A DNA stretch of 48,470 nt from positions 1 to 48,470 of the forward strand of contig JAYUEZ010000052.1 in assembly GCA_043738965.1 (NCBI GenBank), written 5' to 3'. Below the pieces are notes generated by a model that was not told where the DNA came from, searched no databases, and saw only the letters and a program-made list of their open reading frames with translations. A program made the position numbers and the translations under genes. This document shows positions 7,144 through 42,089 of the stretch, in pieces. How positions within the stretch are numbered: position 1 is the first letter of the stretch; every line of letters begins with the position of its first letter. Source of the stretch: Gammaproteobacteria bacterium (GTDB lineage Bacteria; Pseudomonadota; Gammaproteobacteria; Ga0077536).

Positions 7144-7149
7144 AAACCC

Positions 7150-7779
7150 TCAGTGGCGAGCCAGGCTCGTCATTTGTCGGCTCGGAAATACGCCACGGCT
7201 ATGTAAATTGCCGAGCGCACGTTTACTCCCCGTGCGCAGCCAAATTTCGAAATCACGTAGCGTGTCGCCGCGAGAGCCTAAATGCGATTCATCTGCGACT
7301 TCGCCCAGGACATCAACTACCGCAGAAAATTTTCGCGCCAATTCGCCAAAAGGGGTGGCGTATGGAAAGTTGGTGACATAGGTAGCAAGCGCTGCGTTTA
7401 AATCGCGATAAGCAGCGCCACCCATCGCGATGTAATAGTCGACGTCAACGACTTTTCGCGCCAAGCTTCGCGAAAACATACCGGCGATAAACAAGGCAAT
7501 ATCCCCGAGGCGTTTCAATGCCACTTTCCGTTGCTGAGGCCCGTCGGCATACACCGCATCGGCAAATTGCATGGCGAGCGGCTTGATTTCGAGGCCATCG
7601 GCGCCGCGTGTGAAGAGTAGGGCTGGATCGGCGAACGACGACAATAATCGAACAAGGTAATCCGCGGTGCCGATACCTATCTCAAGCTCGCGATGCGCGA
7701 GGGCCGTCGTAAGTTGTCCGCGGAAATAATCTTCGACATTAAGCGTCGTGACCAGTGCGGGCGCATTCATCATAAGCAC
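7150..7779 (-). CDS. Conserved hypothetical protein
   Basis: This is a 209 aa ORF with coding-like composition, forming a tight pair with 6490..7143. I recognise no domain. Confidence 0.6.
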   Translation of the reverse strand: MLMMNAPALVTTLNVEDYFRGQLTTALAHRELEIGIGTADYLVRLLSSFADPALLFTRGADGLEIKPLAMQFADAVYADGPQQRKVALKRLGDIALFIAGMFSRSLARKVVDVDYYIAMGGAAYRDLNAALATYVTNFPYATPFGELARKFSAVVDVLGEVADESHLGSRGDTLRDFEIWLRTGSKRALGNLHSRGVFPSRQMTSLARH

Positions 7780-8028
7780 ACCTCGACTATCAGTTGGCCG
7801 GTCACTAATAGTATCGACGCGTGACCAGTTAGCTTGAAGCGCGTCCCTGAAAGTAAAGCATCTTTCATGCCGCCATGGGCGTTGATAAAAAGCAGGCGGT
7901 GATGAAAATCGATTAGCAGTCTATTGATTCGGCTGCCAACACCGTAACGCCGAGGCGCGGTTGACCAATTGCGTCGAAGTCGACGCCGAATGCATTCAAG
8001 CGTCGCCGTGCGGGTTAAATCGACACCC

Positions 8029-8057
8029 AAAAAGAAAGCCCCGCGGAGCGGGGCTTT
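8029..8057 (-). terminator. Rho-independent terminator of groESL
   Basis: The minus strand reads AAAGCCCCGC-TCC-GCGGGGCTTT followed by CTTTTT. It starts about 27 nt after the groEL stop. Confidence 0.8.
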
Positions 8058-8083
8058 CGAAGGAACGACGTAACGTATTAACG

Positions 8084-9733
<1,650 letters not shown>

Positions 9734-10135: not shown

Positions 10136-10163
10136 TGATATGGGCGCATCACCAAGAATTCAA
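10135..10163 (-). promoter_or_regulatory. groESL promoter, readable as sigma-70-like or sigma-32-like
   Basis: The minus strand reads GCCCTGG-TTGAAT-N17-TATCAT, a sigma-70-like arrangement. The same DNA also reads TTGAA-N14-CCCATAT, which resembles the heat-shock consensus CTTGAA-N13-15-CCCCATNT. The -10 element abuts the CIRCE. Confidence 0.5.
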
Positions 10164-10181
10164 CCAGGGCGACTGATCTAC

Positions 10182-10775
10182 ATGTCTACCGACGAACTTA
10201 ACGGTGATTTGGCGCGACGGTTTCGCGTAAGGCGCCGTGACTCCTCGACGTTTGCCCGTCGGCTAGCGACAGCGCTGTGGCTGATGTTGCCCGCTGCAGC
10301 GGCTACCGTGGCTGCCGATTCGACGAAGCCGGCGTGCGAGTTAAGCGCCAATAACGCGCACTTTGAAGTGACTAGCACGCCGGATGACGGCGAATGGGGT
10401 GCGACCGTCGAAATCCGAGTGAGCGACGCAATGCAAACCCGCAACCGCCTGCTCGTGGTGGAAGAGCGACCGATCGAAGGCTGCTGGTGGGTGGATTTCG
10501 GCAAACCGAGGTCCAGTGGTCTCGTAATTGCGCTAGGTTCGGCGCCCGGCAACAACGCCGGCGTACGTGTTTACAAGATGAAAGCCGATTCCCTCGTGGC
10601 GATGTCGGTCGCGCCGCCTGCCGCGCCTGGGAATGAACGGTATCGATATTTGGTGATAAACGGCGTATTGCACGCCGTCAGCACGAACATTGCCGTTGCT
10701 GGCGAGCCCGCGGATTTTCGCTACGATTTCGATCGTGACGCCTGGGTTAACTCGCCACCCGACAAATCCCCCTAG
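10182..10775 (+). CDS. Hypothetical exported protein
   Basis: I chose the ATG at 10182 over the tracked start at 10140, which lies inside the groES promoter. A hydrophobic segment ALWLMLPAAAATVAA resembles a signal peptide. I recognise no domain. Confidence 0.5.
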   Translation: MSTDELNGDLARRFRVRRRDSSTFARRLATALWLMLPAAAATVAADSTKPACELSANNAHFEVTSTPDDGEWGATVEIRVSDAMQTRNRLLVVEERPIEGCWWVDFGKPRSSGLVIALGSAPGNNAGVRVYKMKADSLVAMSVAPPAAPGNERYRYLVINGVLHAVSTNIAVAGEPADFRYDFDRDAWVNSPPDKSP

Positions 10776-10905: not shown

Positions 10906-11586
10906 ATGACGGGCATGGCCCTCGACAGCTTCAACATGAACGATTGCGTGCAGCCATTCCTGGCCCATTGCCATCGCCGACACTATCCGCCCAAATCAGC
11001 GATCATCCGCCAGGGCGACCGCGCGGGTGAGCTATTCTTCATTATCTCGGGCTCGGTCACCGTGTTGCTAGAAGATGACAAGGGGCACGAAATCGTCCTC
11101 GCCTATCTCAATAGCGGTGAGTTTTTTGGCGAAGTGGGATTGTTTGTCGACGACGGCAATCGCTCAGCGTTGGTGCGCGCGCGCACCGCGTGTGAAATCG
11201 CGCAGATAAGCTATCCCAAACTCAAAGCGCTTACCGATCTCTACCCGCGGTTGTTAACCTGTATGACCGCGCAACTCGCGAAACGCCTCCGTAACACTAA
11301 TCGTAAGCTAGGTGATTTGGCGTTTATGGATGTGTACGGTCGGGTAGCGAGGACGTTGCTCGATTTGAGCGATCAGCCGGATGCAATGACCCATCCGGAC
11401 GGTATGCAGATCCGGGTGACGCGTCAGGAATTGGCGCGCTTGGTCGGCTGCTCGCGCGAGATGGTCGGTAAAGTGCTGAAAGAAATGGGCGACCACAAGC
11501 AAGTTAATGTCGCCGGGAAAAATGTCGTGCTCATCGGCATTCGAACTCGCGGTGCTCGCCGACTCGCCACTGCCCAAGCGTCGTAA
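10906..11586 (+). CDS. crp: CRP/Vfr-type cAMP receptor transcriptional regulator
   Basis: The 226 aa ORF contains FGEVGLF....NRSALVRARTACEIAQISY, LAFMDVYGRVARTLLDLSDQPDAMTHPDGMQIRVTRQELARLVGCSREMVGKVLK. This is close to E. coli CRP, including the cAMP-contact Glu and Arg-Ser and the HTH. Confidence 0.9.
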   Translation: MTGMALDSFNMNDCVQPFLAHCHRRHYPPKSAIIRQGDRAGELFFIISGSVTVLLEDDKGHEIVLAYLNSGEFFGEVGLFVDDGNRSALVRARTACEIAQISYPKLKALTDLYPRLLTCMTAQLAKRLRNTNRKLGDLAFMDVYGRVARTLLDLSDQPDAMTHPDGMQIRVTRQELARLVGCSREMVGKVLKEMGDHKQVNVAGKNVVLIGIRTRGARRLATAQAS

Positions 11587-23596: not shown

Positions 23597-24631
23597 CTAG
23601 TGGGTTGGTGTTGATGAGTTCGTGCGCGCGCGAAACGGCGCTGCCAACGGTTCGCCTATGAACACGCCTTGGCCCGGCCAAACGACGCTTTTCCAATACG
23701 CTTCGATGAGGGACTCGCCGGCCAGGTAGTACTTCAATACCAGACCGGGATTCGGAAACTTCTGTGGAAAATTGCAAGGTTCGACGACGCTGCCGTAACT
23801 GCCGGTGGCGCCCGCTTCGAGCCAGCGTAGGGCGCTCATCTGTCCGTGACCGTCGAGTTGACCGCCAGCCGAGGTCAGGTGATCAGCCACCGCGCCCGGC
23901 AAGAAGCCCAAGGTTTCGAGTCCCGGTACCGCGGTCGTGCCTGTGAAATAAAACATCACGTCAAACCGATTGCGGATCCCATCGGCTTCGATGACGTCGA
24001 CAGGGATCGCCGGACTATACATAGCGCGAATAGCGGGAAATAGGGGGCTACGCGAATTCCGCGCGGTGTCGTGTGTGATGACAAGGTAGGCGCGCCCCCT
24101 CGGCAGCGACGCATCGCTATGTGCGCCGCGCTCGATGAGTTGGTGAACGTTATCCGGCGTCGTGCCCGCGAGGAGCATCGTCGGACGCATGCGGAAGTCT
24201 TGATACGGCGTGCGTGACGCGCTGTCGAAAAAAGGGTTCGGCGCGGTGGGTTTGCATCCCGTCGCACAAAATCGCGTGCCATAGCCAAAGGCGAATGCCG
24301 AACTGATCGACATGCAGCCCACGCGATACGGCAGCGTCCACGCTAACGCATAGGCCTGTACGGCGGGACTGGTCGCCGCCTTGACCTGGCGCTGGGCGTC
24401 CTCGAAATCGGCTGGCGCCAGGTTTTGCTGGGGTGGGCCGAGATGAATGCGAATGACATTGGCGGCGGGGACTTGGCGCCGGGCGCGATAGTACTCACCA
24501 GTGTCGACGCTTGCCGGATCATCGACGTTGATGATGATGGCGAGTTCAGCGGGCGAAAGCGCGCGCGCGCGCGGCGCGAGGGTTACGGCGAGGAGTAGCG
24601 CGAGCACACCTAACGAGTGACGATGCCTCAC
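23597..24631 (-). CDS. Secreted TIGR03790-like family protein (function unknown)
   Basis: The ORF has a signal peptide (GVLALLLAVTLAPRARA), the N-terminal LAIIINVDDPASVDTGEYYRARRQVP and the C-terminal LRWLEAGATGSYGSVVEP...YYLAGESLIEAYW...VFIGEPLAAPF. This matches my recollection of the TIGR03790 pattern. Confidence 0.6.
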   Translation of the reverse strand: MRHRHSLGVLALLLAVTLAPRARALSPAELAIIINVDDPASVDTGEYYRARRQVPAANVIRIHLGPPQQNLAPADFEDAQRQVKAATSPAVQAYALAWTLPYRVGCMSISSAFAFGYGTRFCATGCKPTAPNPFFDSASRTPYQDFRMRPTMLLAGTTPDNVHQLIERGAHSDASLPRGRAYLVITHDTARNSRSPLFPAIRAMYSPAIPVDVIEADGIRNRFDVMFYFTGTTAVPGLETLGFLPGAVADHLTSAGGQLDGHGQMSALRWLEAGATGSYGSVVEPCNFPQKFPNPGLVLKYYLAGESLIEAYWKSVVWPGQGVFIGEPLAAPFRARTNSSTPTH

Positions 24632-24647: not shown

Positions 24648-25832
24648 CTAATGCGCTTTTTTCAGCGCCTTCATCGCCCGATCGAGACCATCAATGGTGA
24701 GTGGAAACATCCGATCCGAAAACAGTTGTTTTACTATGCCGATCGACGGGATATAGCTCCAATAGTCCTCAGGTTGCGGGTTCAGCCACACGGCGTGGGA
24801 GTAAACCGCCAACAGGCGTGCGATCCATGTCGCGCCCGCGTCTTCATTCCAATGCTCGATGCTGCCACCGACCGCCATGATTTCGTAGGGGCTCATGGTC
24901 GCGTCGCCGACGATGACGACTTTGTGATCGGCGCTAAAGGTGTTCATCAACTGGGCAGTGGGTAAGCGCACGTTGTTGCGCATTTGATTGTCGCGCCACA
25001 CGGTTTCATACACAAAGTTATGAAAGTAAAAATGCTCGAGATGTTTAAACTCGGTGCGTGTCGCTGAAAATAGTTCTTCGCACACTTTAACGTGCGGATC
25101 CATTGACCCGCCAACATCCAAAAACAGCAGCACCTTGGTGGTATTGCGGCGTTCCGGCACCAGTTTAATATCGAGCAAGCCCGCCCGCCGCGCGGTCGAG
25201 CGGATGGTATCGTCCAGATCCAATTCTTCCTCGGCGCCCTCGCGCGCAAAGCGCCTAAGCTTGCGCAGCGCAATCTTTATATTGCGCGTGCCAAGCTCGA
25301 CCTGGTCATCGAGATTTTGGTATTCGCGCTTATCCCACACTTTGACCGCCCGCCCCTGGCGTCCGCTCGCTTGGCCGATGCGGATCCCTTCCGGATTGTA
25401 ACCGTTGGCGCCGAACGGCGACGTGCCACCGGTGCCAATCCATTTATTACCGCCGTGATGGGCTTTTTTCTGTTCTTCCAAACGCTGCTTTAGCGTCTCC
25501 ATCAACTTGTCCCAACCGCCGAGACTCTCGATCAGCTTTTTCTCTTCATCGGTGAGATTTAGCTCTTTTTGTTTGCGCAACCATTCCAACGGGATCTCGC
25601 CCAGGATCTCGTCAAAGGCGGTTTGCTGACCGCGAATATAATCCCCGAACACCTGATCGAAACGATCGAAGAAGCGCTCGTCCTTGACCAAGGTGGCGCG
25701 TGCTAAATAATAGAAATCGTCGACACACGAGGTTGCCACCCCTGCTTCCAACGCCCCGAGCAGGGTCAGATACTCGGTGAGCGAGACCGGGATCTGGACT
25801 TTTCTCAGGCGATAAAAAAACTCAGTTAGCAC
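24648..25832 (-). CDS. VWA domain-containing protein (CoxE-like partner of a MoxR ATPase)
   Basis: The 394 aa ORF has the N-terminus MLTEFFYRLRKVQIPVSLTEYLTLLGALEAG and a MIDAS-like LLFLDVGGSM. It overlaps the upstream ATPase gene by 11 nt. Confidence 0.8.
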   Translation of the reverse strand: MLTEFFYRLRKVQIPVSLTEYLTLLGALEAGVATSCVDDFYYLARATLVKDERFFDRFDQVFGDYIRGQQTAFDEILGEIPLEWLRKQKELNLTDEEKKLIESLGGWDKLMETLKQRLEEQKKAHHGGNKWIGTGGTSPFGANGYNPEGIRIGQASGRQGRAVKVWDKREYQNLDDQVELGTRNIKIALRKLRRFAREGAEEELDLDDTIRSTARRAGLLDIKLVPERRNTTKVLLFLDVGGSMDPHVKVCEELFSATRTEFKHLEHFYFHNFVYETVWRDNQMRNNVRLPTAQLMNTFSADHKVVIVGDATMSPYEIMAVGGSIEHWNEDAGATWIARLLAVYSHAVWLNPQPEDYWSYIPSIGIVKQLFSDRMFPLTIDGLDRAMKALKKAH

Positions 25833-26679
25833 TGCGTCCTCGCGACATGAATACCAGGCGTTCGAACAGATGCATGTCTTGCTCGTTCTTCAACAAGGCG
25901 CCGTAGAGCTTCGGGATAGCTTTGCGCGAGTCTTTCTCGCGTAGCGCCTCGGGTGGAATATCTTCGGCGACCAGCAGCTTTATCCAATCAAGCAACTCCG
26001 AGGTCGATGGCTTTTTCTTCAAGCCGGGCAATTCCCGCAGTTCAAAAAAACATTGCATGGCTTCGGCGAGCAGACGTTTTTTAATGTCCGGATAATGCAC
26101 GTGAACAATATGATCCATGGTTTCCTGGTCCGGAAACCGGATGTAATGAAAGAAGCAACGGCGCAGGAAGGCGTCCGGGAGTTCTTTTTCGTTGTTGCTG
26201 GTAATGATGATGATGGGCCGTTGCACGGCTTTGATGGTTTCCTTGGTTTCATAGACAAAGAATTCCATGCGATCGAGTTCTTGTAATAAATCATTCGGGA
26301 ATTCAATGTCCGCTTTATCGACCTCATCGATCAGCAATACCGGCTGGACCGATGACTCGAACGCCTCCCACAATTTTCCTTTAAGAATATAGTTACGAAT
26401 ATCGTGGACTCGATTGTCGCCCAGCTGCGAATCACGCAAGCGCGCGACGGCGTCATATTCGTAAAGGCCACGGGCCGCTTTGGTGGTCGATTTGATATGC
26501 CATTGGATTAATGGGCGGTCGAGCGAGCGGGCGATCTCTTCCGCCAACATGGTCTTGCCGGTGCCTGGTTCGCCCTTGACTAAGAGTGGTCTTTCGAGCG
26601 TGATTGCAGCGTTAACCGCCATCATGAGATCGTCGGTCGCGACGTAGGTATCAGTTCCGGTAAAGCGCTCGGTGGCCAT
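25822..26679 (-). CDS. MoxR-like AAA+ ATPase
   Basis: Walker A is present in LLVKGEPGTGKTMLAEE and Walker B in VLLIDEVDKA, and the ORF also contains ITSNNEKELPDAFLRRC. I prefer the ATG at 26679 (MATERFTG...) to the tracked 26760. Confidence 0.88.
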   Translation of the reverse strand: MATERFTGTDTYVATDDLMMAVNAAITLERPLLVKGEPGTGKTMLAEEIARSLDRPLIQWHIKSTTKAARGLYEYDAVARLRDSQLGDNRVHDIRNYILKGKLWEAFESSVQPVLLIDEVDKADIEFPNDLLQELDRMEFFVYETKETIKAVQRPIIIITSNNEKELPDAFLRRCFFHYIRFPDQETMDHIVHVHYPDIKKRLLAEAMQCFFELRELPGLKKKPSTSELLDWIKLLVAEDIPPEALREKDSRKAIPKLYGALLKNEQDMHLFERLVFMSRGRSAN

Positions 26680-26840
26680 GATGGATTCCAATCGATGAAT
26701 TGTCGGGGCATTGTAATGCAAGGCGCGCCATGCGCGACCGGGCAACTTAGGGCTATGCAATCCTTAACTCGAAACGCATGTCGGCGGAATTAGCTGACCC
26801 AAGCAGGGTCCTATTCTCAAATATCGCGCGAAGGATTGGT

Positions 26841-27838: not shown

Positions 27839-28327
27839 ATGCCACATCTAAATCGCCCACTGATGGGCACCGCTCACCGCCCATCCACTTGGCAACCGAT
27901 GCCCGTCATGGACGGCGATCAACGCGTTTATCCCCGAATCGCGCTGGAAATTCCCGTCGCGTTCCGCAATGGGCTCGGCCAACACTGTGCGGCGCGGCTG
28001 CGTAACCTCGCACCGGACGGTTTGCAGGTTCAATGTAACGTCGTCACCGCGCAAATTATCCACCCGCTGGGGGGAAAGATTCAGGCCATGAACCAATCCA
28101 TTCTGCACGCGACCGCGGTGTTGCCATTGATGAGTGGGCCAGAGACTTTATCGGTGGGAGTACGGCTGGTCTATTCGGCGACCGTAAACGAGGAGTCCCG
28201 TTGTGTGTTGGGCTTCCAGTTCCTCGAACTGCGCCCGATCCCACGACGCTTGATCGACGCGTATTTTGCCGAGCAAATTAAACATCTCTACCCCGACGCC
28301 GACTGCGATGTGGGGCACGCCGCCTAG
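27839..28327 (+). CDS. PilZ domain-containing protein
   Basis: An RxxxR motif (RVYPR) is followed about 25 aa later by the (D/N)x(S/A)xxG motif (NLAPDG). The start could be a downstream Met. Confidence 0.7.
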   Translation: MPHLNRPLMGTAHRPSTWQPMPVMDGDQRVYPRIALEIPVAFRNGLGQHCAARLRNLAPDGLQVQCNVVTAQIIHPLGGKIQAMNQSILHATAVLPLMSGPETLSVGVRLVYSATVNEESRCVLGFQFLELRPIPRRLIDAYFAEQIKHLYPDADCDVGHAA

Positions 28328-29058
28328 TCGAGCCATCCGCCCGTGGCCTGCAGCGGGCGGCGCGATGCAGCGTCTTCGATCCATACCGCCAACGCACGGC
28401 GCGGTGTGGGCGCCGTCGGCACTGGAAGCGCCAGCCGTTTATCAAATTGCCGGTCATGGGCGTCCAGAGCGGTTTCGGTATCGGCCAAAACGACGAAATC
28501 ATGGCGTAATTGACGGCCAGCGTTTTCGCCACGCGCAATCGCGCTATTAATGCCACTCCCCAACACCGCGACGTGGACAATGAAATCGGTCCCGGGGATC
28601 AGCGGTCGCCACTGGATTTCGACTGCTGAGTTGATCATCCGCACCTCAAGATTCCCGACGTTCGCCGTCGCGCGCGGCAGCGTCGCGCCATCGAACCATC
28701 CCCGCCATTCGTGACCGTCGACGATAAATTCAGGCGTGTACACCCCGGCCGCGCTGTGTCCCGCCTGCGTGCGTTGCCGGTTACTGGCGGCATTTGATGC
28801 ATAACTATCCTGCCAGCCGAGGTCATCCCAATAGTCGACATGAAAGGCGACCGGCACGACCTCTTGCCACAGCCGCGAGTCATCGACCCAGGCCGAGAGC
28901 CAGCGATCAGCCGGTGGACAACTGCTACAGCCTTCCGAAGTATAGAGTTCGAGTAACGTGGTTTGAGTGGGGCCGGCGCGAAAACTAGCGGGCGCGGCCA
29001 GCGCCGCATCGCACGCCAGTCCGAGCAGCAGCAATAACACATCGGGGGTCAATCGCAT
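28324..29058 (-). CDS. DUF1223 domain-containing secreted protein (thioredoxin-like)
   Basis: A signal peptide is followed by LELYTSEGCSSCPPADRWL...VAFHVDYWDDLGWQD, the hallmark of DUF1223. Confidence 0.8.
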   Translation of the reverse strand: MRLTPDVLLLLLGLACDAALAAPASFRAGPTQTTLLELYTSEGCSSCPPADRWLSAWVDDSRLWQEVVPVAFHVDYWDDLGWQDSYASNAASNRQRTQAGHSAAGVYTPEFIVDGHEWRGWFDGATLPRATANVGNLEVRMINSAVEIQWRPLIPGTDFIVHVAVLGSGINSAIARGENAGRQLRHDFVVLADTETALDAHDRQFDKRLALPVPTAPTPRRALAVWIEDAASRRPLQATGGWLD

Positions 29059-29106: not shown

Positions 29107-31512
29107 CTACAGTTCGACGCCAATCTTGCCAGCAATTTCGTCGAGTAGCGAAAACACATTATTGGTGGCAGCCTGCTTGGCGGCCGCCGCGCGTTGTTTA
29201 ATACGTTCGGTTTGAGCCTGCTGGCGCGCGAGTTCCGCACGTTGTTCAGTTGAACCGTGGAAGCGTTCTTGTTCTTCGATCCATTCGTCGAGTTCGTGGT
29301 GCAGAAGCCGATCAAGTTCATTTTCCGAGCTGTAAGTGCGCTCCAGGCGTTGCGCGTTGCCGCGTTGTCGCTCGGCTGCGTTGGAGGTGGCAGTCTCGGC
29401 GTCAGACACCCCACGCGCCGCGTTCGCCACCCGCGTTTCGAGCATTTGTAAATGCGTACGTAAGTGAGTTTCGGTGGCCGCACTCGTGGTCTGACGCTCG
29501 CGCGCGACGGAAAGTTCACGCTCGGCGGCGTCACGCGCGGCTTCCGCGTTGGTTTTGGCCTGGCGCGCCACCGCCATTTCGGCGCGGATCCGTTCGGCTT
29601 CGGTGACGACGGCGGCACGCTCGGCCAGCAGGCTCTGTTGCAAGGTCGCGAGTTGTCGCTGCTGGGTCGCTTGATATTCCGCCATAATCCTGCGGGCTTC
29701 GTCCGCCGCGGCCTGGGAGGCCGCTTCGGCCGCCTGCTGTTCATGACGGACGCGCGCGATTTCGGCCGCGGAGCGCGCGAACTCAACCTCGAAGCGCTGC
29801 CGCTCACGCGCCAGTTCGGCGGTTAACGTGTCGCGGATTTGCTGTTCACGCTCCGCTATGGATTGTGCCTGGGCGTCTTCGCGCTTCTTGATTTCGCGCT
29901 CGAGCCGCTCGGCGGCGGCTAGGCGTTCACGGCTTTTCGACGATTCCAGTTCCAGTTCCTGCCACGCCTGATCCAAGGCCTTGCGCGTGTCGGTATGTTC
30001 CGCGTGCAATTGTTCAAGTCGCGCCGCTTGCTTGCGATAGACCTCCTCGAGGCGCTGTTCCTTTTCTTGCATGGCGTGCGCGATTTTGCGTTGCAATTCT
30101 TCGGCTTGTGCGTCCTGCGCCGTGCGCTGGCGCGTGGCTTCGGCCACTGCTGCGGCATGTTGGCGTTCGAGATCAGCCTTGAATTGCTGCGCTTCCGCCA
30201 ACTTGGTTTGGACCAGCGCAGCGGCTTTATCGATAGCGGCGCGCTCACCTTGCAAGCGCTGCTGTACATATTGTTCGGCGTCGCGTTTCGCGGCCGCCGC
30301 TTCAATCATCAAGCGCTGCGCCGTTTCGATTTGCAAGCGCGCGCGCTCGACGTCCGCCGCGAGCGACAGCGCCAGCGCTTCGGCGGCAACGAGTTCGTCG
30401 CGCGGGGCCGAGATGGTCGGCGCTGGCCTTGCGGCGACTGTGCGCGCCTGCTGCGCGCCGATTTCGTCGATCCCACCATTTTCGACGAAATACGCGTCAC
30501 AACCTTCTTCGGTTAACAGGAAGGCAGCAGCGGAACTGCGTCCACCGGTATCGCAATACGCAATATATTGGACGTCGCGGTCGATTCCCTTGAGTCGATT
30601 CCGCAACAAGCTGAGCGGTATGTTAATGCTGTTCGGTAGCCCGTTGGCACTATGTTCTTCTGGAAATCGCACGTCGAGCCAGCGCGCGCCAGCGGCGACC
30701 ATGGTGGTTGCCGTGGCGAGCGAAATCCCCTGGAGGACTGGGCGTTTGATGAGTTCAATGAAGTGCTCCTGAGTTAGACGGCCGAGTGCGCCGTCGGTCA
30801 GCATGCGCACCGTCGCGTTGCGCGTGGCGTTTGACACCAAGGCTTCTTCACCGAAGGTATCGCCAGGACCCAGCTCCGCCAAGCGAATTTCCTTTCCGAC
30901 TCGCGTGGCCCGGCACACTTCGCACGTTCCCGTCTGGATGACGTAGTAGTAATCGCCCGCCGCACCTTGCTGGATGATGACGTCGCCCGCCTTCACTTCG
31001 GTGGTTTCGAGGGTATCGATGAGGCGTTGGATATTGGACGGAGGGATTCGCGCGAATAACTCTGACTGGAGCAGGGTGGCTAACCAATCGTTGCTTCCAT
31101 CGGTCGTGTATTCTTCGATTTCGATGGCAGGTAAGGCCGCCAGCGCGCGCGCGTCGGTTCCGACGCTTAACAGCGTGTCGAGAACGCGACGATCGATCCG
31201 CAAGATCTGCGCATTGGTTACCGCCACGGCTGACATTTGGCGTGGCTGCAGCTGGGCCAGTGGATGAAACGACGTTGCCTCGCCACCGATGACTTTTTTG
31301 ATTAATTGGTCGCCCGCGACCATCTCCAATTCGCCGGCCAGCAAGTAAAACGAATAATGGTCGTTGTCCCCTTGCCGAAACAGGTACTCCTTGCGCCGCA
31401 ACGTCAGGATTTCCGCTGCCGCGAGCAATTGTTCCTGCTGCTTGGGTTGCAGATTGTTGATGGGAACCAACAATCCAAGACGTTCACGAAACGGGTTTTG
31501 AGCCTCTGCCAT
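29107..31512 (-). CDS. Tandem cyclic-nucleotide-binding + rhodanese + long coiled-coil protein (paralog A, 801 aa)
   Basis: The first cNMP-like domain looks degenerate (HPLAQLQPRQMSAVAV). The second has a PBC-like FGEEALVSNATRNATV. A rhodanese domain follows (WLDVRFPEEH...YIAYCDTGGRSS), then about 450 aa of A/E/R/Q-rich heptad-like sequence. Confidence 0.85.
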   Translation of the reverse strand: MAEAQNPFRERLGLLVPINNLQPKQQEQLLAAAEILTLRRKEYLFRQGDNDHYSFYLLAGELEMVAGDQLIKKVIGGEATSFHPLAQLQPRQMSAVAVTNAQILRIDRRVLDTLLSVGTDARALAALPAIEIEEYTTDGSNDWLATLLQSELFARIPPSNIQRLIDTLETTEVKAGDVIIQQGAAGDYYYVIQTGTCEVCRATRVGKEIRLAELGPGDTFGEEALVSNATRNATVRMLTDGALGRLTQEHFIELIKRPVLQGISLATATTMVAAGARWLDVRFPEEHSANGLPNSINIPLSLLRNRLKGIDRDVQYIAYCDTGGRSSAAAFLLTEEGCDAYFVENGGIDEIGAQQARTVAARPAPTISAPRDELVAAEALALSLAADVERARLQIETAQRLMIEAAAAKRDAEQYVQQRLQGERAAIDKAAALVQTKLAEAQQFKADLERQHAAAVAEATRQRTAQDAQAEELQRKIAHAMQEKEQRLEEVYRKQAARLEQLHAEHTDTRKALDQAWQELELESSKSRERLAAAERLEREIKKREDAQAQSIAEREQQIRDTLTAELARERQRFEVEFARSAAEIARVRHEQQAAEAASQAAADEARRIMAEYQATQQRQLATLQQSLLAERAAVVTEAERIRAEMAVARQAKTNAEAARDAAERELSVARERQTTSAATETHLRTHLQMLETRVANAARGVSDAETATSNAAERQRGNAQRLERTYSSENELDRLLHHELDEWIEEQERFHGSTEQRAELARQQAQTERIKQRAAAAKQAATNNVFSLLDEIAGKIGVEL

Positions 31513-31516
31513 GAGT

Positions 31517-31720
31517 TTAAGCGTCGAGATCAGGGATGAGTGCGCTCTTCAGTCGGGTGATCTGATCTTTAAGCTGCAATTTGCGCTTCTTCAGCCGTTT
31601 TATGAGCAATTCGTTTAGCGGTGCGGAATCGTTAAGGCGATGCACAATTTCGTCGAGATCCCGATGCTCGACTTGCAGCTCAAAAAGCCGGCGTTCGAGT
31701 GATTTTTTCCCGCCGTCCAC
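31517..31720 (-). CDS. DUF465 (YdcH-like) small coiled-coil protein
   Basis: The sequence LERRLFELQVEHRDLDEIVHRLNDSAPLNELLIKRLKKRKLQLKDQITRLKS is typical of DUF465. I chose the GTG at 31720, which is preceded by a G-rich SD (AAGGGTGGGG). The stop lies 4 nt before the paralog A ATG. Confidence 0.7.
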   Translation of the reverse strand: MDGGKKSLERRLFELQVEHRDLDEIVHRLNDSAPLNELLIKRLKKRKLQLKDQITRLKSALIPDLDA

Positions 31721-32137
31721 TACCCCACCCTTATATCGCCGAGTCCAGTTCACAGGTGCCGTTGACGTCCAAATTCTACGCCTAACGAACCAAAAATGCG
31801 GCACTAATCCGCGCGACTACCCGCTCAGGGTCAAATTCCGCTGGGCACCGCGAGTTCGGTAGGTATAATCAAACGCATCGATACGGGCCCTCAATGGCAT
31901 ACGGAATCTGCCGCGGGTACTGCCAATTCGCTATTTGTGACGCAACGGACATTTTTGTTGCTGAATCAAATGCCCCAAACGCCGATACCCGGTCCGCATC
32001 AGCCTAGTCGTGTGCCTAGGGCGAGGATCATAGAGAATGCGTGACCGCTATCACAAACACCTAGGTCTGGTCCTGCGCCACGCGATTTGGCTTGCTTTAA
32101 TTCGATCCTGTGAGAACGCACCTGCCCCACTTCGCCG

Positions 32138-35100
32138 ATGGAAATTATGTCGTCCGCACCTGACATGACGGCACCCGTGTCGCTCGAAAAACGCTTTGCC
32201 GCGGTTTTGCGCATGCTCGTTCCACTGAACGGGTTGTCGGTACCGCGGCGGCAGCAACTGTTCACGCAAGCCGACGTGCTACCAATCCGGCGCGGCAGTT
32301 ATGTCTTCCATGAAGGGGACAAGGACAGTTATACGTTCTTTTTACTCGAAGGCCATCTCGAACTCTTTTCGGGCCAGCAGTTAGTCAAGAAAATCACCGG
32401 CGGTACGGCGGACGCGGTGCATCCGTTGGCCCAGCTGCAGCCGCGTCAGTTGTCGGCGCGGGCGGTGAGTGATTCGAATGTCCTCCGCGTGAGCCGCGAT
32501 CTACTGGATAAATTGCTCGCGCTCGATGGCGCGGGTGAACCGCGCGACGTGCGTGTCAATGATATCGGCGCCGAGGATGATGCGGATTGGATGACGCGCA
32601 TGCTGCAGTCCGAACTATTCGGACGCGTGCCGGCGGCCAACATCCAACGGATTTTTTCGAGCCTTGAGCCGATTGAATTTAAGTCCGGCGACATCGTCGT
32701 TCGTCAGGGCGACCTCGGTGACTACTACTACGTGATCCAATACGGTCGTTGCCAGGTGAGTCGACAAATTGCCTCCGGCAAAATGCCGATCAAACTCGCT
32801 GAATTGGGGCCCGGCGATACTTTCGGCGAGGAAGCCCTGGTCGCCGACGCCAAACGCAACGCGACCGTGGTGATGTTGACCAATGGCACGCTAATGCGAC
32901 TGACAAAATCCGACTTTGTCGAGCTCATTAAAAAGCCATTACTAAGCGATATCAGTCATCAAGAAGCCATGCGCCTGGTCGATCAGCATGGCGCGTTGTG
33001 GCTCGACGTGCGCTTCCCTGAAGAACACAAACAGGGCAATTTGGAAGGCAGCCTGAACCTGCCGCTCAATACCTTGCGCATGCATGCGGAGCGACTCGAT
33101 CACGATAAGGTCTATATCGTGTGTTGCGACACCGGCTCGCGGAGTTCGGTCGGTGCTTTCCTGTTGTCGGAACGCGGATTTGATGTGCACTTTTTAGCGG
33201 GTGGCTTGAATCGCTATGGCCTGGTCAAACTCGCCGCGTCGCCACCAGCGGCACGTAAACCCGAGCTCAAGGTCGCCCAAGTAACGACTATGCCGGTGAG
33301 CGCCACCGTGCCGGCCTCGCAGCGCTCCGACGCCGAACGCCGTAGCAGCGGGCTCGCGGAGCAGGATTTTGACAACGAATCAATCGAAGCTGACCTGCGC
33401 GCGCAATCGCTGAAAGCGGAACTCGCGAAAGCCAACATCCAACTTGACGAAGCGCGGAAGCTCAAAGAACAAGCCGAACAGGCACGCCAAGAATCGACCA
33501 AGGTTGCCGCCGCGCAACTCGACGCCGAGCGCACGCGTCTCGGACAAGAAGCAACCAAGGCGCGACGAACCTGGGAGGAAGCGCAGCGCCTCAAGAGTGA
33601 GCTAGAACAGGCCAAGCAGGTGGCGCAACAAGCCGCGACACGGGCACGCAGCGAAGAGCAGGCCGAGCTGCTCGAAGCCAATCGCAAGCTCGAAGAAGCG
33701 CAACGCATCAAACAAGAGGTCGAAGCCGCGCGCGCGCAAATGGAGGTAGAGCTGCGCGAGCGAATTGCCGCCGAACAAGCGAAATTCGCCGCCGACGCAG
33801 AACGCGCGCGCCTGGAATACGAAACGCGCGCGCGTGAGCTAGCCGCCGCACAGGACCACCAGCGGCGCCAGGACGAAGCGCAACGTTTCAAGGAAGAGAC
33901 GGCGGCGGCGCGGGCGCAAATGGAGGTAGAGCTGCGCGAACGGATTGCCGTCGAACAGGACAAACTCGCGATCGATGTGGAACGTGCGCGAAGCGAACTC
34001 GAAACGCGCGCGCGTGAATTAGCTGAAGAGCAATTAGCACGACGGCGAATTGAAGAAATCGAACGGCAGAATGAAGGCGCGGCCGCGCTGCGCGCGCGAA
34101 TGGATATTGAGATCCGTGAGCGCGTCGCCGCGGAGCAGGCAAGAATGGCGGCAGAGGCCGATCACGCACGGTCGACCGCGGCAAGCACTACACGTGATGA
34201 AGAATTGGCCGATCTGCACGAAGTAGTGCGTAAATTGGAGGAAGCACAGCGGTTCAAAGAGGAAGCCGAGGCCGGGCGCGCGAAATTAGATCTTGAATTA
34301 CGTGAGCGGCTCGCGGCGGAGCAAGCCCAACTAGTCGCGGATTCCGCACAAGCACGCCAGGCCCTAGAGGATGAGGCGCGTCGTTTGCGCGCCGAACTTG
34401 AGACGCGGCAGCACGACATCGAAGCGACGTACGCGGCGCGTCTGCGCGCGCATGAGGCCATGGAAGCGGAGCTCGCGGCGCGGCGCCAGGTGGAAGCGTT
34501 GCAGCTTCGCGAAGAAGCCGACCGCGCGCGACTCGAACTCGAAGCCGCGTCCGAAGCCCGCCTACGCGAAGAGCAAGCCAAACTTGAAGCCGAAGCCGCG
34601 CGCACGCGCGCAGCGTGGGAAGACGCGCAACGCCTCAAGGCGCAATTGGAACTCGAAAAGCGCGAAGCAGAAAGTGAAGCCGTGTTACGGCGCGAACGCG
34701 AACAGGCTGGCCTGCAAGCCGCCAACGCGCGAATCGAAGAGGCGGAGCGCATGCGTCAGGAAGCCGAGGCGGCGCGCTCGCGCCTGGAAGCCGAGGCCGC
34801 GCAAAAACTTGCCGAAGAGCAAGAGCGTCTCGCGGCGGAAGCCGCGCGCGCACAACGCACGTGGGAGGAAGCGCAACGTCTCAAGGAGCAAATAGAAATC
34901 GAGAAGCGCAACGCGGAACAGGAAGCCGCGCTGCGCCATCAGGCCGAAGAAGAGCGCATTCAGGCGATGCGTGAGGACGCCGAGCGACGCCTACGCCAAG
35001 AAGAGAAAAAGCTCGAAGAAAGTTACGCGTGGCAGGCGGAAGAACTAGCGCGCCTGCAGCGCATGAAGGAAACCGCTGAGTTGCAGCTGGCGGACGAGCG

Positions 35101-35986
35101 TGACCGCCTGAAAGCCGAGTCTAACGAGGCCATGCTGCGTCTCGCCGAGGCCAAACAACTGCAAGTCGAGCTCGAACAAGCCCGCATCGCCAGCGCTGAA
35201 GAGGCCGAGCTTCGCCAGCAGCGCCAACTTGAAATCGAACGCAAATTACGCGACGAAATTCAAGCCAAGGTTGATGGCGAACGGCGCAAGCTCGAAGCTG
35301 AATTCGCGCGGAATGCCGAGGAGCTAGAGCGCGCGCGTCGTGAGAAAGCGGCCGCCGAAGCCGCACGGAGCGCGGCCGCCGAGGAAGCCGAACGGATCAT
35401 CGAGGAGTACAAGCAAACGCATCAACAAGTGCGCGCGCGCGAGGAAGAGAACCTCCGCGCCGAGCGCGCGCGTCTCGAGTCCGAAGCCGCGGCCTTGCGC
35501 GCTGCGTTGGGCGATGCGCAAAACGCGCGCGAGCAGGCGGTCACGGTGCAGCAGCGCCTGGAGCATCAGCTCCGGGAATTGGCAAGCGCGCGCGCGAAAG
35601 ACAGTGATTCACATAGCGCGCGTGAAGCCGAGTTAGCCTCTGATATCGCCGCCATCGAGGTTGAAGTCAGCGCGGCGCGCGCCAAGGCGTCCGCGGCCGA
35701 GGCGGCGCACTTGATGGTGCAACAAGCAGCGACCCGTAATCAGGAAAATCTCGCGCAGCATCGGCAGGACGAGGCAACAACGCGCGGGCGCTTTGAACAG
35801 GAGATTTCGGCGTGGTTACGCGAACAGGAATCCGCGCACGCGAGCCGGGCATCAAGCCAAGCCTTTGCCAATCAAAAAGCGCATCTCGAGCGAATCAAAC
35901 AACGCGCACAGGCGGCACGAGTCGCCGCCAAGCACCATGACCAAACATTGATCGAGGAGCTGGCAGCGCGCTTGAAGGACGAATAG
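32138..35986 (+). CDS. Tandem cyclic-nucleotide-binding + rhodanese + very long repetitive coiled-coil protein (paralog B, up to 1282 aa)
   Basis: The N-terminal ~390 aa are colinear with paralog A (HPLAQLQPRQLSARAV; FGEEALVADAKRNATV; WLDVRFPEEH...YIVCCDTGSRSS). About 880 aa of E/A/R/Q coiled coil follow. The C-terminal block LERIKQRAQAARVAA is shared with A (ERIKQRAAAAKQAA). The start could be ATG 32138, 32147 or 32165. Confidence 0.85.
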   Translation: MEIMSSAPDMTAPVSLEKRFAAVLRMLVPLNGLSVPRRQQLFTQADVLPIRRGSYVFHEGDKDSYTFFLLEGHLELFSGQQLVKKITGGTADAVHPLAQLQPRQLSARAVSDSNVLRVSRDLLDKLLALDGAGEPRDVRVNDIGAEDDADWMTRMLQSELFGRVPAANIQRIFSSLEPIEFKSGDIVVRQGDLGDYYYVIQYGRCQVSRQIASGKMPIKLAELGPGDTFGEEALVADAKRNATVVMLTNGTLMRLTKSDFVELIKKPLLSDISHQEAMRLVDQHGALWLDVRFPEEHKQGNLEGSLNLPLNTLRMHAERLDHDKVYIVCCDTGSRSSVGAFLLSERGFDVHFLAGGLNRYGLVKLAASPPAARKPELKVAQVTTMPVSATVPASQRSDAERRSSGLAEQDFDNESIEADLRAQSLKAELAKANIQLDEARKLKEQAEQARQESTKVAAAQLDAERTRLGQEATKARRTWEEAQRLKSELEQAKQVAQQAATRARSEEQAELLEANRKLEEAQRIKQEVEAARAQMEVELRERIAAEQAKFAADAERARLEYETRARELAAAQDHQRRQDEAQRFKEETAAARAQMEVELRERIAVEQDKLAIDVERARSELETRARELAEEQLARRRIEEIERQNEGAAALRARMDIEIRERVAAEQARMAAEADHARSTAASTTRDEELADLHEVVRKLEEAQRFKEEAEAGRAKLDLELRERLAAEQAQLVADSAQARQALEDEARRLRAELETRQHDIEATYAARLRAHEAMEAELAARRQVEALQLREEADRARLELEAASEARLREEQAKLEAEAARTRAAWEDAQRLKAQLELEKREAESEAVLRREREQAGLQAANARIEEAERMRQEAEAARSRLEAEAAQKLAEEQERLAAEAARAQRTWEEAQRLKEQIEIEKRNAEQEAALRHQAEEERIQAMREDAERRLRQEEKKLEESYAWQAEELARLQRMKETAELQLADERDRLKAESNEAMLRLAEAKQLQVELEQARIASAEEAELRQQRQLEIERKLRDEIQAKVDGERRKLEAEFARNAEELERARREKAAAEAARSAAAEEAERIIEEYKQTHQQVRAREEENLRAERARLESEAAALRAALGDAQNAREQAVTVQQRLEHQLRELASARAKDSDSHSAREAELASDIAAIEVEVSAARAKASAAEAAHLMVQQAATRNQENLAQHRQDEATTRGRFEQEISAWLREQESAHASRASSQAFANQKAHLERIKQRAQAARVAAKHHDQTLIEELAARLKDE
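33692..34417 (+). repeat. In-frame tandem repeats of about 180 bp (60 aa) inside paralog B
   Basis: Units begin at 33692, 33872, 34052 and 34238. The 26-mer GCGCAAATGGAGGTAGAGCTGCGCGA occurs at 33734 and again at 33914, exactly 180 bp apart. GAAACGCGCGCGCGTGA is also shared between units 1 and 2. Confidence 0.8.
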
Positions 35987-40607: not shown

Positions 40608-42089
40608 TTATTTGCGGCGGAAATAGCGCGTAATCAAATCCGCGTCATCGAAATGCCGACGCCCGACAAACGCGGTGGCGTGATGGCCGCGGCTCCGCAT
40701 CGCGCCGGGCGCTGGCACGCCGAGCGGCCACAGTACAAAGCGCTCGCCACGTTCGCTGCCCGCGATGACGCCATCCGTGCCAAAGATGCCGCGGCGCCGC
40801 TGTGCGGCGTCCTGCGGCAGACTGCGTAACACGTCATAGTCGGCGCGTGCGAGGGCGATCGGCGGCGTGGTGTCTGCGTAACCAATGCCACGCACATAGT
40901 GCGTGGCGCTTGCCAATTCGACGACCACTTGACCGGCTTCCGGAATTTCGAATGGAACCCACGGCGGTTCGGTTCCGGCCTCAGTTGGTTTACGCAGCGC
41001 CAAGCGCGGCGTCGGAAACCAAAGGTGATAGCAACCACAATTGTGAATGCTGTCGTAGAGTAGCGCGTGGCCATCATCGTCCAAGGTCACACGCCAGGTG
41101 AGACCGTCCAACGCGCCCGCCAATAAATCGAGGGGTCCAGACGACGGGCGTGCCGCGAACCACACCACATAATTCAATTGCAACAACAGGCGCGATTCGA
41201 ACCGCGTATAGCTCAAGTAAGTAAAAACCGTCGGTGCACTGGTATCGACCGCCACGCGGCCGTGCCGCCACACGGGATGACCGATGCGGTCATTGTCGCT
41301 CAGTGTCGCGATCCGCCATTGCGGCGCATGGCGCGCAAATAATTGGGCGAGTAGGGCGTCAGGCACGGTAGGGAACTGGAGCGCATCGCGGGCAAACGCC
41401 ATTGGTGTCATCGGAGCGGCCTCGCTCGATCCATAAGTGAGCACCCCTGCGTCAGACGCGGACAAGTGCGGTGCGACCGGGAAATCACGTTGCAGTCCCG
41501 CGAGTCCCGACAAGGCGAAGCGTGCGGCCACCGGATAGATGCCGACCACTCGCTGCCAAGTGCGATAGTCATCGGGTACCACGGCGGCGGCGCGCACCGC
41601 GTTGAACCGCTGTGGGTCACTGGCGATTTCGGTTATTAGTGATTGTCGGCATTCGTCCAGCGCGAGACGCGTTGGCAGGGGTTCGCGATGCACTCCCGCG
41701 AGATTCACGAGCTCATGTTGGCGCGCGACGGCATCGAGGGCCGCCAACCGCGCGAGCCACGTCGCGCGGCCGACTGGATCTTGTACCGTCGCCCCGACGG
41801 CGGCGAGCAGACGATCGATACGTAAAAATGGAAATCCGAGAACGCTGGCCGCTTCCGCATCGCGTAAGCCGGCCCGTTCGACCACGACATCCAGTTGTTC
41901 GAATGCCGCGACGCACGCGGCCGACGAGCGTTCGACCAGCGCGAGTGAGGTGTTAGGGAGTTCTGCACACCCGCTTAGTCCGAGCAGGAAGAGCAGAGCA
42001 AGGCGTGCGAAATAGAGACGGCGAAAGGTAATGCGCGCGGCTCCTTCAGCGGTGCCCCAGCGTGTAGAATCGAGCCAAACTAATTCCAT
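40608..42089 (-). CDS. Conserved hypothetical lipoprotein
   Basis: A lipobox LLGLSGC follows RRLYFARLALLF. The start is uncertain, either ATG 42089 or a possible ATT at 42032. The ORF contains WRVTLDDDGHALLYDSIHNCGCYHLWF. Confidence 0.6.
   Translation of the reverse strand: MELVWLDSTRWGTAEGAARITFRRLYFARLALLFLLGLSGCAELPNTSLALVERSSAACVAAFEQLDVVVERAGLRDAEAASVLGFPFLRIDRLLAAVGATVQDPVGRATWLARLAALDAVARQHELVNLAGVHREPLPTRLALDECRQSLITEIASDPQRFNAVRAAAVVPDDYRTWQRVVGIYPVAARFALSGLAGLQRDFPVAPHLSASDAGVLTYGSSEAAPMTPMAFARDALQFPTVPDALLAQLFARHAPQWRIATLSDNDRIGHPVWRHGRVAVDTSAPTVFTYLSYTRFESRLLLQLNYVVWFAARPSSGPLDLLAGALDGLTWRVTLDDDGHALLYDSIHNCGCYHLWFPTPRLALRKPTEAGTEPPWVPFEIPEAGQVVVELASATHYVRGIGYADTTPPIALARADYDVLRSLPQDAAQRRRGIFGTDGVIAGSERGERFVLWPLGVPAPGAMRSRGHHATAFVGRRHFDDADLITRYFRRK

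Follow-up and report, generated by a model that had tools for sequence, protein, structure and literature searches.

A conserved gene trio encoding two stalked CNB-rhodanese paralogs and a DUF465 protein, a candidate class of cAMP effector

The locus and its conserved trio of genes

The window analyzed here covers positions 1–48,470 (48,470 nucleotides, nt) of contig JAYUEZ010000052.1 from a gammaproteobacterial assembly (GCA_043738965.1). It contains two large genes, A and B, that face away from each other and are separated by a short gene of the DUF465 family (Table 1). Both large products begin with two consecutive cyclic nucleotide-binding (CNB) domains, continue into a rhodanese domain, and end in a long helical stalk. 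In a BLASTP comparison, A and B were 41% identical across 512 aligned columns (E 9e-121), and a second alignment paired the last 426 residues at 32% identity (E 3e-15). The whole proteins each matched PF00027 twice (E 1.2e-32 for A and 9e-31 for B) and PF00581 once (4e-11 and 3e-12). Each domain was also cut out and scored alone against the Pfam gathering score (27.5 bits for PF00027). Every domain exceeded it, with the scores for A listed in Table 1 and the first CNB domain (CNB-A), second CNB domain (CNB-B), and rhodanese of B reaching 42.1, 73.6, and 52.4 bits. An initial annotation, prepared from the letters of the sequence, had described two large divergent paralogs with these domains and had quoted several of their motifs; its coordinates proved exact, all of the motifs were located in A and B, the paralogy was borne out by the alignments, and the domain calls withstood the profile search. 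It also knew of no characterized protein with this architecture, in agreement with the generic names of the homologs and with a full-text literature search, in which no paper or source annotation gave the architecture or its function. Judged by sequence, A and B are ancient paralogs in an uncharacterized family of soluble proteins.

No transmembrane segment was predicted in A or B, and Pfam searches and transmembrane prediction revealed no membrane or peptidoglycan-binding domain in either. Source records name such proteins "CRP-like cAMP-binding protein", which is misleading because A and B lack a helix-turn-helix: neither matched the Pfam families HTH_Crp_2 or Crp, and assignment as a CRP/FNR transcription regulator was ruled out since no C-terminal helix-turn-helix follows the CNB domains. 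Orthologs suggest that the real start of B is its third ATG, at 32165. Stalk-bearing proteins form at least 710 clusters at 90% identity, and the orthologs span 840–1422 residues (B-type) and 731–848 residues (A-type). Many alternative-frame open reading frames (ORFs) lie inside A and B and were attributed to the GC-rich, repetitive nature of the coding sequence. GC content is even across the window (54–63%), and no tRNAs or Rfam families were found within its 48 kb.

A scan of genome contigs identified 18 loci, every one in a metagenome-assembled genome (MAG). The gene order B-type (divergent), DUF465, A-type was found at 10 of the 18 loci of species-representative genomes. Loci with the trio are L001–L010, L019, and L021–L024, and their flanking genes change; the distant lineages L019, L021, L023, and L024 keep the trio between different flanks, and in L022, where a single strand carries all three, they are flanked by ppk/hemD/prfH-like genes and by a Rap1a gene. 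At L011, L012, and L018, DUF465 and B occupy the same syntenic block and A is absent, which suggests that A is dispensable or located elsewhere. In a neighbor-joining tree of the head modules, the A-position genes formed a single clade, so the duplication appears older than these lineages. The unit proposed at the outset was a paralog pair; the survey found the pair to be syntenic together with DUF465, but the conserved unit is the trio, from which A is sometimes missing.

The DUF465 product matched PF04325 with 48.2 bits (cut-off 25; E 1e-12). Its stop codon and the start codon (ATG) of A are 4 nt apart, so the two genes form an operon. Its orthologs are basic, highly conserved proteins of 68 residues that end in ...RLKKRKLxLKDxIxRLKSxLIPDLDA; the literature search returned no function for DUF465, and sequence comparison returned no solved structure. 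A profile built from 12 orthologs detected no DUF465 gene near the loci of single-copy or tail-less family members, and a 72-residue ORF upstream of the gene at L029 was unrelated. The region upstream of DUF465 contains a −10-like hexamer (Table 1). About 15 nt upstream of it, CCGCATTTTT combines a GC stem with a T-run (gcgg...ccgcATTTTT); this element is conserved in closer relatives and resembles a small terminator or attenuator hairpin.

Table 1. Coordinates of the trio, its domains, and associated sites. Positions refer to the window, except in the last row, where they refer to the named loci. aa, residues; pLDDT, predicted local distance difference test.
Feature	Position	Strand	Details
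Gene A	29107..31512	minus	801 aa; tandem CNB, rhodanese, helical stalk; A-type paralog downstream of DUF465
A CNB-A domain	31138..31449	minus	~aa 22–125; β-barrel with remodeled pocket; PF00027, 38.9 bits; AlphaFold2 β-sandwich, pLDDT ~90
A CNB-A pseudo-cassette FHPLAQLQPRQMSA	31228..31269	minus	aa 82–95; without Gly-Glu, 2 residues short, Arg retained
A CNB-B domain, canonical	30742..31089	minus	~aa 142–257; PF00027, 82.4 bits
A phosphate-binding cassette FGEEALVSNATRNATV	30808..30855	minus	aa 220–235; length equals that of PKA/PKG cassettes
A rhodanese domain	30445..30723	minus	~aa 264–356; PF00581, 47.4 bits; joined straight onto the CNB-B hinge helix
A rhodanese active-site loop C320-D-T-G-G-R-S	30535..30555	minus	C320, D321, G323, and R325 invariant in 54 homologs
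A helical stalk	29113..30405	minus	aa 370–800; four long helices (AlphaFold2)
A C-terminal block	29122..29346	minus	LERTY..ELDEW..EQER..ERIKxRA..SLLDEIAxxL
DUF465 gene	31517..31720	minus	67 aa; GTG start at 31720; Shine-Dalgarno AAGGGTGGGG; PF04325
−10-like TAGAAT within GCGTAGAAT, upstream of DUF465	31773..31778	minus	Exact in 10 of 15 aligned regions, one base off in 2 more
CRP-type palindrome CGTGACCGCTATCACA	32040..32055	both	TGTGA-N6-TCACG on the other strand; one mismatch
Extended −10 TGcTTTAAT, predicted B promoter	32093..32101	plus	Column-conserved TTGCTTTAAT in anchored alignment
Gene B	32138..35986	plus	1282 aa; tandem CNB, rhodanese, ~880-aa stalk; B-type paralog
B phosphate-binding cassette FGEEALVADAKRNATV	32822..32869	plus	aa 229–244
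B rhodanese loop C330-D-T-G-S-R-S	33125..33145	plus	
B helical stalk	33335..35983	plus	Nine EEAQR[LIF]K-type repeat motifs
Tail-less clusters	L020 1318–11231; L025 2325–12197; L026 and L027 2250–12139; L016 5534–11487		

Sensor head, rhodanese, and stalk

CNB-B has a phosphate-binding cassette of canonical length with the canonical phosphate and ribose contacts (G-E ... R-x-A). Conservation was assessed in 54 aligned homologs that are 45–71% identical to A, and motifs were counted in 137 scanned sequences. The cassette residues F220, G221, E222, E223, L225, R231, N232, and A233 were invariant in the alignment, and a cassette of the FGEEAL..RNA type was present in 136 of the scanned sequences. 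The initial annotation had read this second cassette as near-canonical, with Asn after the Arg, and both parts of that description were confirmed by the invariance. The corresponding motif of the first domain, HPLAQLQPRQ[ML]SA, reads HPLAQLQPRQMSA in A and HPLAQLQPRQLSA in B. CNB-A fails the canonical cassette test, having no Gly-Glu for the ribose contact and two residues fewer. Its pocket residues Q87, L88, P90, and R91 (QLxPR) are nevertheless invariant in the homologs, and few stretches of the protein are as well conserved as this one, which argues that CNB-A has been remodeled and selected and is not decaying. The initial annotation had called the domain degenerate, a view that this conservation corrects.

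An AlphaFold2 (AF2) model of residues 1–385 of A, built from the 54-sequence alignment, had a mean pLDDT of 84.4 and a predicted template modeling score (pTM) of 0.48, with low confidence only in an acidic linker (127–138) and the Pro-rich junction to the stalk (362–369). It contains the CNB folds and the rhodanese that the initial annotation had proposed. In Foldseek searches of the PDB with the head of A, the top 50 matches were all tandem CNB structures of PKA regulatory subunits (PKA-R) or PKG, led by PKA RI-alpha and PKG with ~250–300 aligned columns and E values down to 1.9e-20. A phmmer search of PDB sequences likewise returned PKG and PKA-R (E 1e-25 to 1e-16). Trypanosome PKA-R structures with bound nucleosides were among the fold matches. 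The hinge residues F251, L254, and P258 are invariant across the aligned homologs. The CNB-B barrel of A also carries a CxxC pair (C197-E-V-C200, 30913–30924), for which the equivalent in B is C205; the first Cys is kept in most gammaproteobacterial members and replaced by Phe in the tail-less form from Burkholderiales. This pair could be a second redox-active site.

The rhodanese active-site loop reads CDTGGRSS in A and CDTGSRSS in B, and CD[TS]G[GS]RS was found in ~115 of the scanned sequences. Retention of the catalytic-loop Cys, noted in the initial annotation, was confirmed by the invariance of C320. The loop has the length CX4R, not CX5R. A short CX4R loop is reportedly of the sulfurtransferase type, and CX5R that of Cdc25/Acr2 enzymes. 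The Cdc25 active-site loop is CE[F/Y]SxxR, a CX5R sequence (PMC2887360). A Cdc25/Acr2-type phosphatase or arsenate reductase was ruled out because the CDTGGR loop is one residue shorter. The best NCBIfam rhodanese match was PspE, followed by GlpE, and assignment to either equivalog was rejected: scores of 37.1 bits (PspE) and 16.9–28.5 bits (GlpE) fall far below the cut-off of 102, so A and B are not PspE or GlpE orthologs. The domain has a catalysis-type loop and putative sulfurtransferase activity. In the AF2 model, a helix of only about nine residues (248–256) leads from the last CNB-B strand to the rhodanese; being so short, it suggests that the rhodanese may stand in for the usual C-helix lid.

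The tails span ~430 residues in A and ~880 in B and are rich in Ala (22–23%), Glu (14–19%), and Arg (12–14%), with Pro and Gly nearly absent and a net charge of −22 in A and −42 in B. Only the tail of A was modeled. In the full-length model (pTM 0.31), it consists of helices at 370–416, 422–524, 528–676, and 681–800, with pLDDT mostly 75–92. Of the heptad windows, only 33% in A and 19% in B are strong, and strongly hydrophobic residues make up 18–19%. Conserved heptad a/d positions occur at A377, A381, L384, A391, I395, A398, M402, and A405, with a second conserved run at A588, A595, and A602; the first run supports a true coiled coil directly after the rhodanese. The initial annotation had assigned the whole C-terminal region to a coiled coil. 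These conserved positions bear that out between 377 and 405, but the heptad signal over the whole tail is modest. Dimerization of the stalk through its heptads is proposed from the conserved positions.

The last ~80 residues are conserved (LERTY..ELDEWV.EQER..ERIK.RA..SLLDEIA.QL), and the ERIKQRA motif reported near both C termini was found in A and B. When the last 102 residues of A were compared with 1.84 billion representative proteins, only 29 matches were obtained; nine of these, 738–912 residues long, end in the C-terminal block like known members, and five short matches that were inspected are family fragments ending in the block. With so few matches, and those inspected being members or fragments, the block is family-specific. 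Together, the conserved a/d positions and the conserved block argue that the stalk is more than low-complexity sequence. No Pfam family or PDB sequence relative of the stalk was found, and Foldseek with the full-length A model returned CNB matches at the N terminus and none to the stalk. A motif scan placed the EEAQR[LIF]K-type motifs of B at residues 437, 480, 519, 579, 701, 745, 828, 867, and 910, and pairwise comparison revealed a repeated 60-residue unit (519–578 versus 579–638, 71% identical); Tandem Repeats Finder reported nothing beyond a trivial 27-bp repeat. Two proteins of 1336–1342 residues, P0357 and P0358, from the MAG Gammaproteobacteria BMS9Abin26 have the same head and an E/A/K-rich stalk, with a transmembrane segment and an FGE-sulfatase domain (PF03781) replacing the usual C-terminal block.

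CRP box, tail-less homologs, and gene neighborhood

A CRP-type palindrome (CRP box) precedes B (Table 1) and was present upstream of 17 of the 17 B-type genes examined (the window, L001–L007, L009–L012, L018, L019, and L021–L023). Its half-sites are invariant, its spacer is variable, and its flanks have diverged. The 48-kb window contains two such CRP-type matches, against a chance mean of 0.72. Its spacing to B is fixed, at 174–216 nt when measured to a conserved Pro codon, and that to DUF465 varies (169–451 nt). In the window and most close relatives, the conserved element TTGCTTTAAT occurs 41 nt downstream of the box, with a near-match in L021. At class I CRP promoters, a TGTGA-N6-TCACA box is centered near −61.5. 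With the extended −10 at 32093–32101, the box before B would be centered at about −60.5/−61.5; the predicted transcription start therefore gives the B promoter class I geometry. The window encodes its own CRP (10906–11586), which scored 306 bits against an equivalog cut-off of 266 and has the CNB and helix-turn-helix Pfam domains, a recognition helix with R-E kept (GCSREMVGK), and an R-S cassette. The link to crp drawn in the initial annotation stands through the conserved box, not through gene proximity, the distance being ~17.5 kb.

A second, weaker CRP-like half-palindrome, TGTCCGTTGCGTCACA (31936–31951, minus strand), lies ~100 nt from the first, toward DUF465. Similar sites occur in L002, L003, L007, and L018, and in L009, L010, L019, and L022 a second CRP-like box is just 33–43 nt from the first. 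TGTCCGTTGCGTCACA was rejected as an ordinary CRP activator site for DUF465, as it is ~177 nt upstream of the predicted start and too far away.

The head also occurs as a tail-less protein of 345–370 residues, in at least 3397 clusters (90% identity) from uncultured Burkholderiales, with the cassette FGEEALV.EAKRNAT and the rhodanese loop CQSGRRS. Its gene lies in a same-strand cluster in the order PP2C, FHA, CHASE2 plus class III cyclase, MBL/PDEase_II phosphodiesterase, the tail-less receptor with its two CNB domains and rhodanese, GAF-MshEN-T2SSE ATPase, and GAF-HD-GYP. The receptor gene begins 9 nt downstream of the PDEase_II/MBL gene, which itself follows the gene for the CHASE2 and PF00211 cyclase. 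The cluster was found on four contigs of closely related Burkholderiales, and L026 and L027 show this same arrangement. At the positions that define the substrate, the cyclases have Lys (DKYIGD) and Thr (YTAMGDAVN), residues of adenylyl-cyclase type that we take, from class IIIb cyclases, to indicate ATP. A pilin gene lies near the tail-less cluster of L025.

Around the trio in the window is a syntenic housekeeping block of genes for an M16 peptidase, YajQ, DUF3301, the trio, PilZ, Sel1, a MoxR-like AAA protein, and a VWA protein. The initial annotation had drawn on neighboring fimV, pilZ, yajQ, and crp genes; all are in the window, with crp ~17.5 kb and the fimV-like gene ~14 kb from the A/B pair, but the fimV-like gene, pilZ, and yajQ provide no functional evidence because they reflect housekeeping synteny that is lost in distant lineages keeping the trio.

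Several other genes were recorded. A DUF1223 gene (28324–29058, minus strand) 48 nt downstream of A encodes a signal-peptide-like N terminus and a CSSC motif; among close relatives it occurs only in the window and L001, and it is also near the trio in the distant L021. On the A side, a MoxR/MadB-like AAA ATPase and VWA_CoxE pair (24648–26760, minus strand) also keeps close to the trio at the distant L019, L021, and L023. ORFs without a Pfam family lie at 6490–8168 (minus), 10140–10775 (plus), 23597–24631 (minus), and 40608–42089 (minus); among them, three successive ORFs share the strand of a Cpn60-family gene (8084–9721) and lie downstream of it, and a 344-residue ORF is syntenic beside the VWA gene. 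Two records in the survey, L002 (CAMATU010000001.1) and L003 (CAZKRY010000001.1), are titled Klebsiella pneumoniae or uncultured Klebsiella; this taxonomy looks wrong because both records, in locus and synteny alike, match uncultured Gammaproteobacteria from groundwater and lakes.

Interpretation and comparison with known systems

Few cAMP effectors other than CRP are known; among them are CbpA, Pat (a mycobacterial acetyltransferase), Bd1971, and channels. In most bacteria, CRP is the sole route of global regulation by cAMP, according to a recent survey of the field (PMC11139211). We tentatively prefer to read A and B as cAMP-gated rhodaneses carried on stalks, which would make them a new class of cAMP effector distinct from CRP. 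The CRP box before B and the cyclase and phosphodiesterase beside the tail-less form make cAMP the most likely ligand of CNB-B and point to the rhodanese as the output. A rise in cAMP would allow cAMP-CRP to turn on B, and the same nucleotide would then occupy the intact CNB-B cassette in A and B. Through the hinge helix, which leads straight into the rhodanese and carries the invariant F251, L254, and P258, binding could reposition the rhodanese, gating access to or reactivity of its catalytic Cys, which would form or pass on a persulfide. CNB-A, with its ribose contact lost and its pocket invariant, may act as an allosteric or partner-binding pseudo-site. The stalk would dimerize via the conserved Ala/Leu heptads and keep the sensor-enzyme head apart from whatever partner docks on the conserved C-terminal helix, and DUF465 may be a small helical partner of the stalk.

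Several observations weigh against this reading. The Asn after the cassette Arg (N232) is the sole oddity of the CNB-B cassette and is invariant; we know of no characterized CNB domain with Asn at this position, and the ligand could be other than cAMP. A site for anionic thiosulfate would not usually have an Asp beside its catalytic Cys, as this one does. Repositioning of the rhodanese by nucleotide is suggested by the short, directly joined hinge helix and by nothing else, and the inter-domain geometry of the models is unreliable (pTM 0.48 for the head and 0.31 for full-length A). For the stalk, heptad a/d enrichment over shuffled sequences is modest (z 4.4 in A and 3.2 in B), and Glu-Arg/Lys pairs at i,i+4 spacing are over-represented in the tail of B, a feature of single α-helices, both of which temper the proposed dimerization. 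What would connect DUF465 to the stalk is the adjacency of the genes. A single Burkholderiales lineage (mutual identity 75–95%) supplies the cyclase-phosphodiesterase context, and no cyclase adjoins the trio itself. Finally, database-wide protein searches and cluster look-up placed all named homologs in MAGs of uncultured bacteria.

A somewhat unlikely alternative is that the rhodanese Cys senses instead of catalyzing, becoming persulfidated or oxidized under sulfide or redox stress, in a two-input scaffold that would combine this signal with cyclic nucleotide occupancy and send a purely conformational output down the stalk, to DUF465 or to a partner on the C-terminal helix. The conserved trio has no obvious gene for a sulfur acceptor, and the position-specific conservation in the stalk and C-terminal block is of the kind expected for a transmission or docking element. 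The swap of the C-terminal block in P0358 for a membrane anchor and FGE-sulfatase-type domain also fits, since an alternative C-terminal end suggests that the stalk connects the head with some other site. Genes for AhpC, a thioredoxin-reductase-like protein, glutaredoxin, and a second rhodanese occur near some members, inconsistently. The tail-less form, however, keeps the Cys loop and the cassette with neither stalk nor C-terminal block, so there only the rhodanese can be the output, which disfavors a scaffold as the ancestral mode. A full CX4R loop with invariant Gly and Arg moreover suits catalysis, and a bare redox Cys would not need it.

It is decidedly unlikely that the CNB folds bind some small ligand other than a 3′,5′-cyclic nucleotide, in the way of the trypanosome PKA-R that binds nucleosides or of many sensors in the CRP/FNR family, which would remove A and B from the cyclic nucleotide effectors. 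The invariant, atypical Asn, the loss of the canonical ribose contact from CNB-A, and the nucleoside-bound trypanosome PKA-R among the fold matches would all suit such a ligand. CNB-B, by contrast, retains all canonical contacts at canonical spacing, trypanosome PKA-R has lost the cassette Arg, and the cyclase and cyclic nucleotide phosphodiesterase flanking the tail-less homologs, as well as the CRP box in the B promoter, point to a cyclic nucleotide.

We consider it very unlikely that A and B are structural or landmark proteins, that is, polar or cytoskeletal scaffolds like FimV/HubP or CbpA in which the CNB domains steer localization and the rhodanese is vestigial. The very long, acidic, repeat-expanded stalks (in B-type proteins of 840–1422 residues) would suit such a role, a FimV_N-domain gene lies within the window, and CbpA both binds cAMP and localizes to cell poles (PMC3019171). 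The invariance of the rhodanese loop indicates, however, that this domain is not vestigial; the fimV-like gene is 14 kb away and is not linked to the trio in the distant lineages examined for flanking genes, and the proteins have no detected membrane or peptidoglycan-binding domain. A Pycsar-like anti-phage effector activated by a cyclic pyrimidine is scarcely credible and was rejected: PADLOC paired A weakly with Pycsar TIR effectors over their CNB region (E 1.6e-10 to 4e-6), and the phosphodiesterase beside the tail-less form has a weak Apyc1-family match, but the PADLOC similarity is confined to generic CNB sequence, with no TIR or transmembrane killing domain, no PycC-type cyclase is adjacent in the window, the genes belong to a stable, syntenic part of the core genome and not to a defense island, and PADLOC was blank for B and DUF465.

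The preferred reading, a cAMP-gated rhodanese on a stalk, can be extended in a direction that we regard as unlikely when taken as a whole. A, B, and DUF465 would then form a heteromeric stalk machine, induced by cAMP-CRP and gated by cAMP, that delivers persulfide sulfur, or a signal in the form of persulfidation, to a distant dock, and in Burkholderiales the tail-less form would steer a type IV pilus or MSHA-like ATPase pathway; if true, this would be a direct, previously unknown coupling of cyclic nucleotide signaling to sulfur trafficking and a general new class of non-CRP cAMP effectors in bacteria. What would be new in the preferred reading itself is the pairing of a cyclic nucleotide receptor with a rhodanese as its output, carried on a stalk and encoded in a conserved, CRP-controlled trio, CNB-enzyme fusions being already known (Pat, Bd1971). 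If correct, it would add an abundant, conserved class of cAMP effector (at least 710 stalk-bearing and at least 3397 tail-less clusters), the first link of cyclic nucleotide signaling to sulfur or persulfide chemistry, and the first functional context for DUF465. The CRP box, the cyclase cluster, the invariant loop, and DUF465 make the idea testable with recombinant proteins despite the uncultured hosts.

Among known systems, PKA-R (RI-alpha, RII-beta) and PKG are the best matches to A (E 1e-25 by phmmer and 2e-20 by Foldseek). They share with A and B two consecutive CNB β-barrels with N3A and hinge helices and a second cassette of equal length and contacts. Unlike them, A and B are bacterial and lack a partner kinase, an inhibitor sequence, and a docking domain; the cassette of their CNB-A is shorter and without Gly-Glu, the Arg of the second cassette is followed by Asn in a place usually taken by Ala, Ser, or Thr, and a directly fused rhodanese would take the place of the C-helix lid. 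With GlpE and PspE of E. coli, A and B share the rhodanese fold, a Cys CX4R loop followed by a helix, and a DVR..E motif, and they differ in the fusion to a sensor and stalk, in the Asp after the Cys, and in scoring 37 bits against 102. Pat, the mycobacterial cAMP-dependent acetyltransferase, and Bd1971, a CNB-EAL phosphodiesterase, also fuse CNB to an enzymatic output; the Pat CNB was the best NCBIfam match overall (E 1.5e-12) and Bd1971 was among the PDB matches, whereas A and B combine a rhodanese output with a tandem sensor and a long helical stalk. CbpA of Pseudomonas aeruginosa has tandem CNB domains and is not known to have a rhodanese, stalk, paralog pair, or DUF465 partner. Its gene is reportedly regulated by Vfr/cAMP, which would parallel the CRP box before B. 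CbpA (PA4704) is a non-CRP cAMP-binding protein with polar localization (PMC3019171; PMC11139211). The 67-residue gene product, finally, shares the basic KKRKL.LKD motif of the DUF465/YdcH family (PF04325), and it accompanies CNB-rhodanese-stalk genes specifically where these occur in the paired form.

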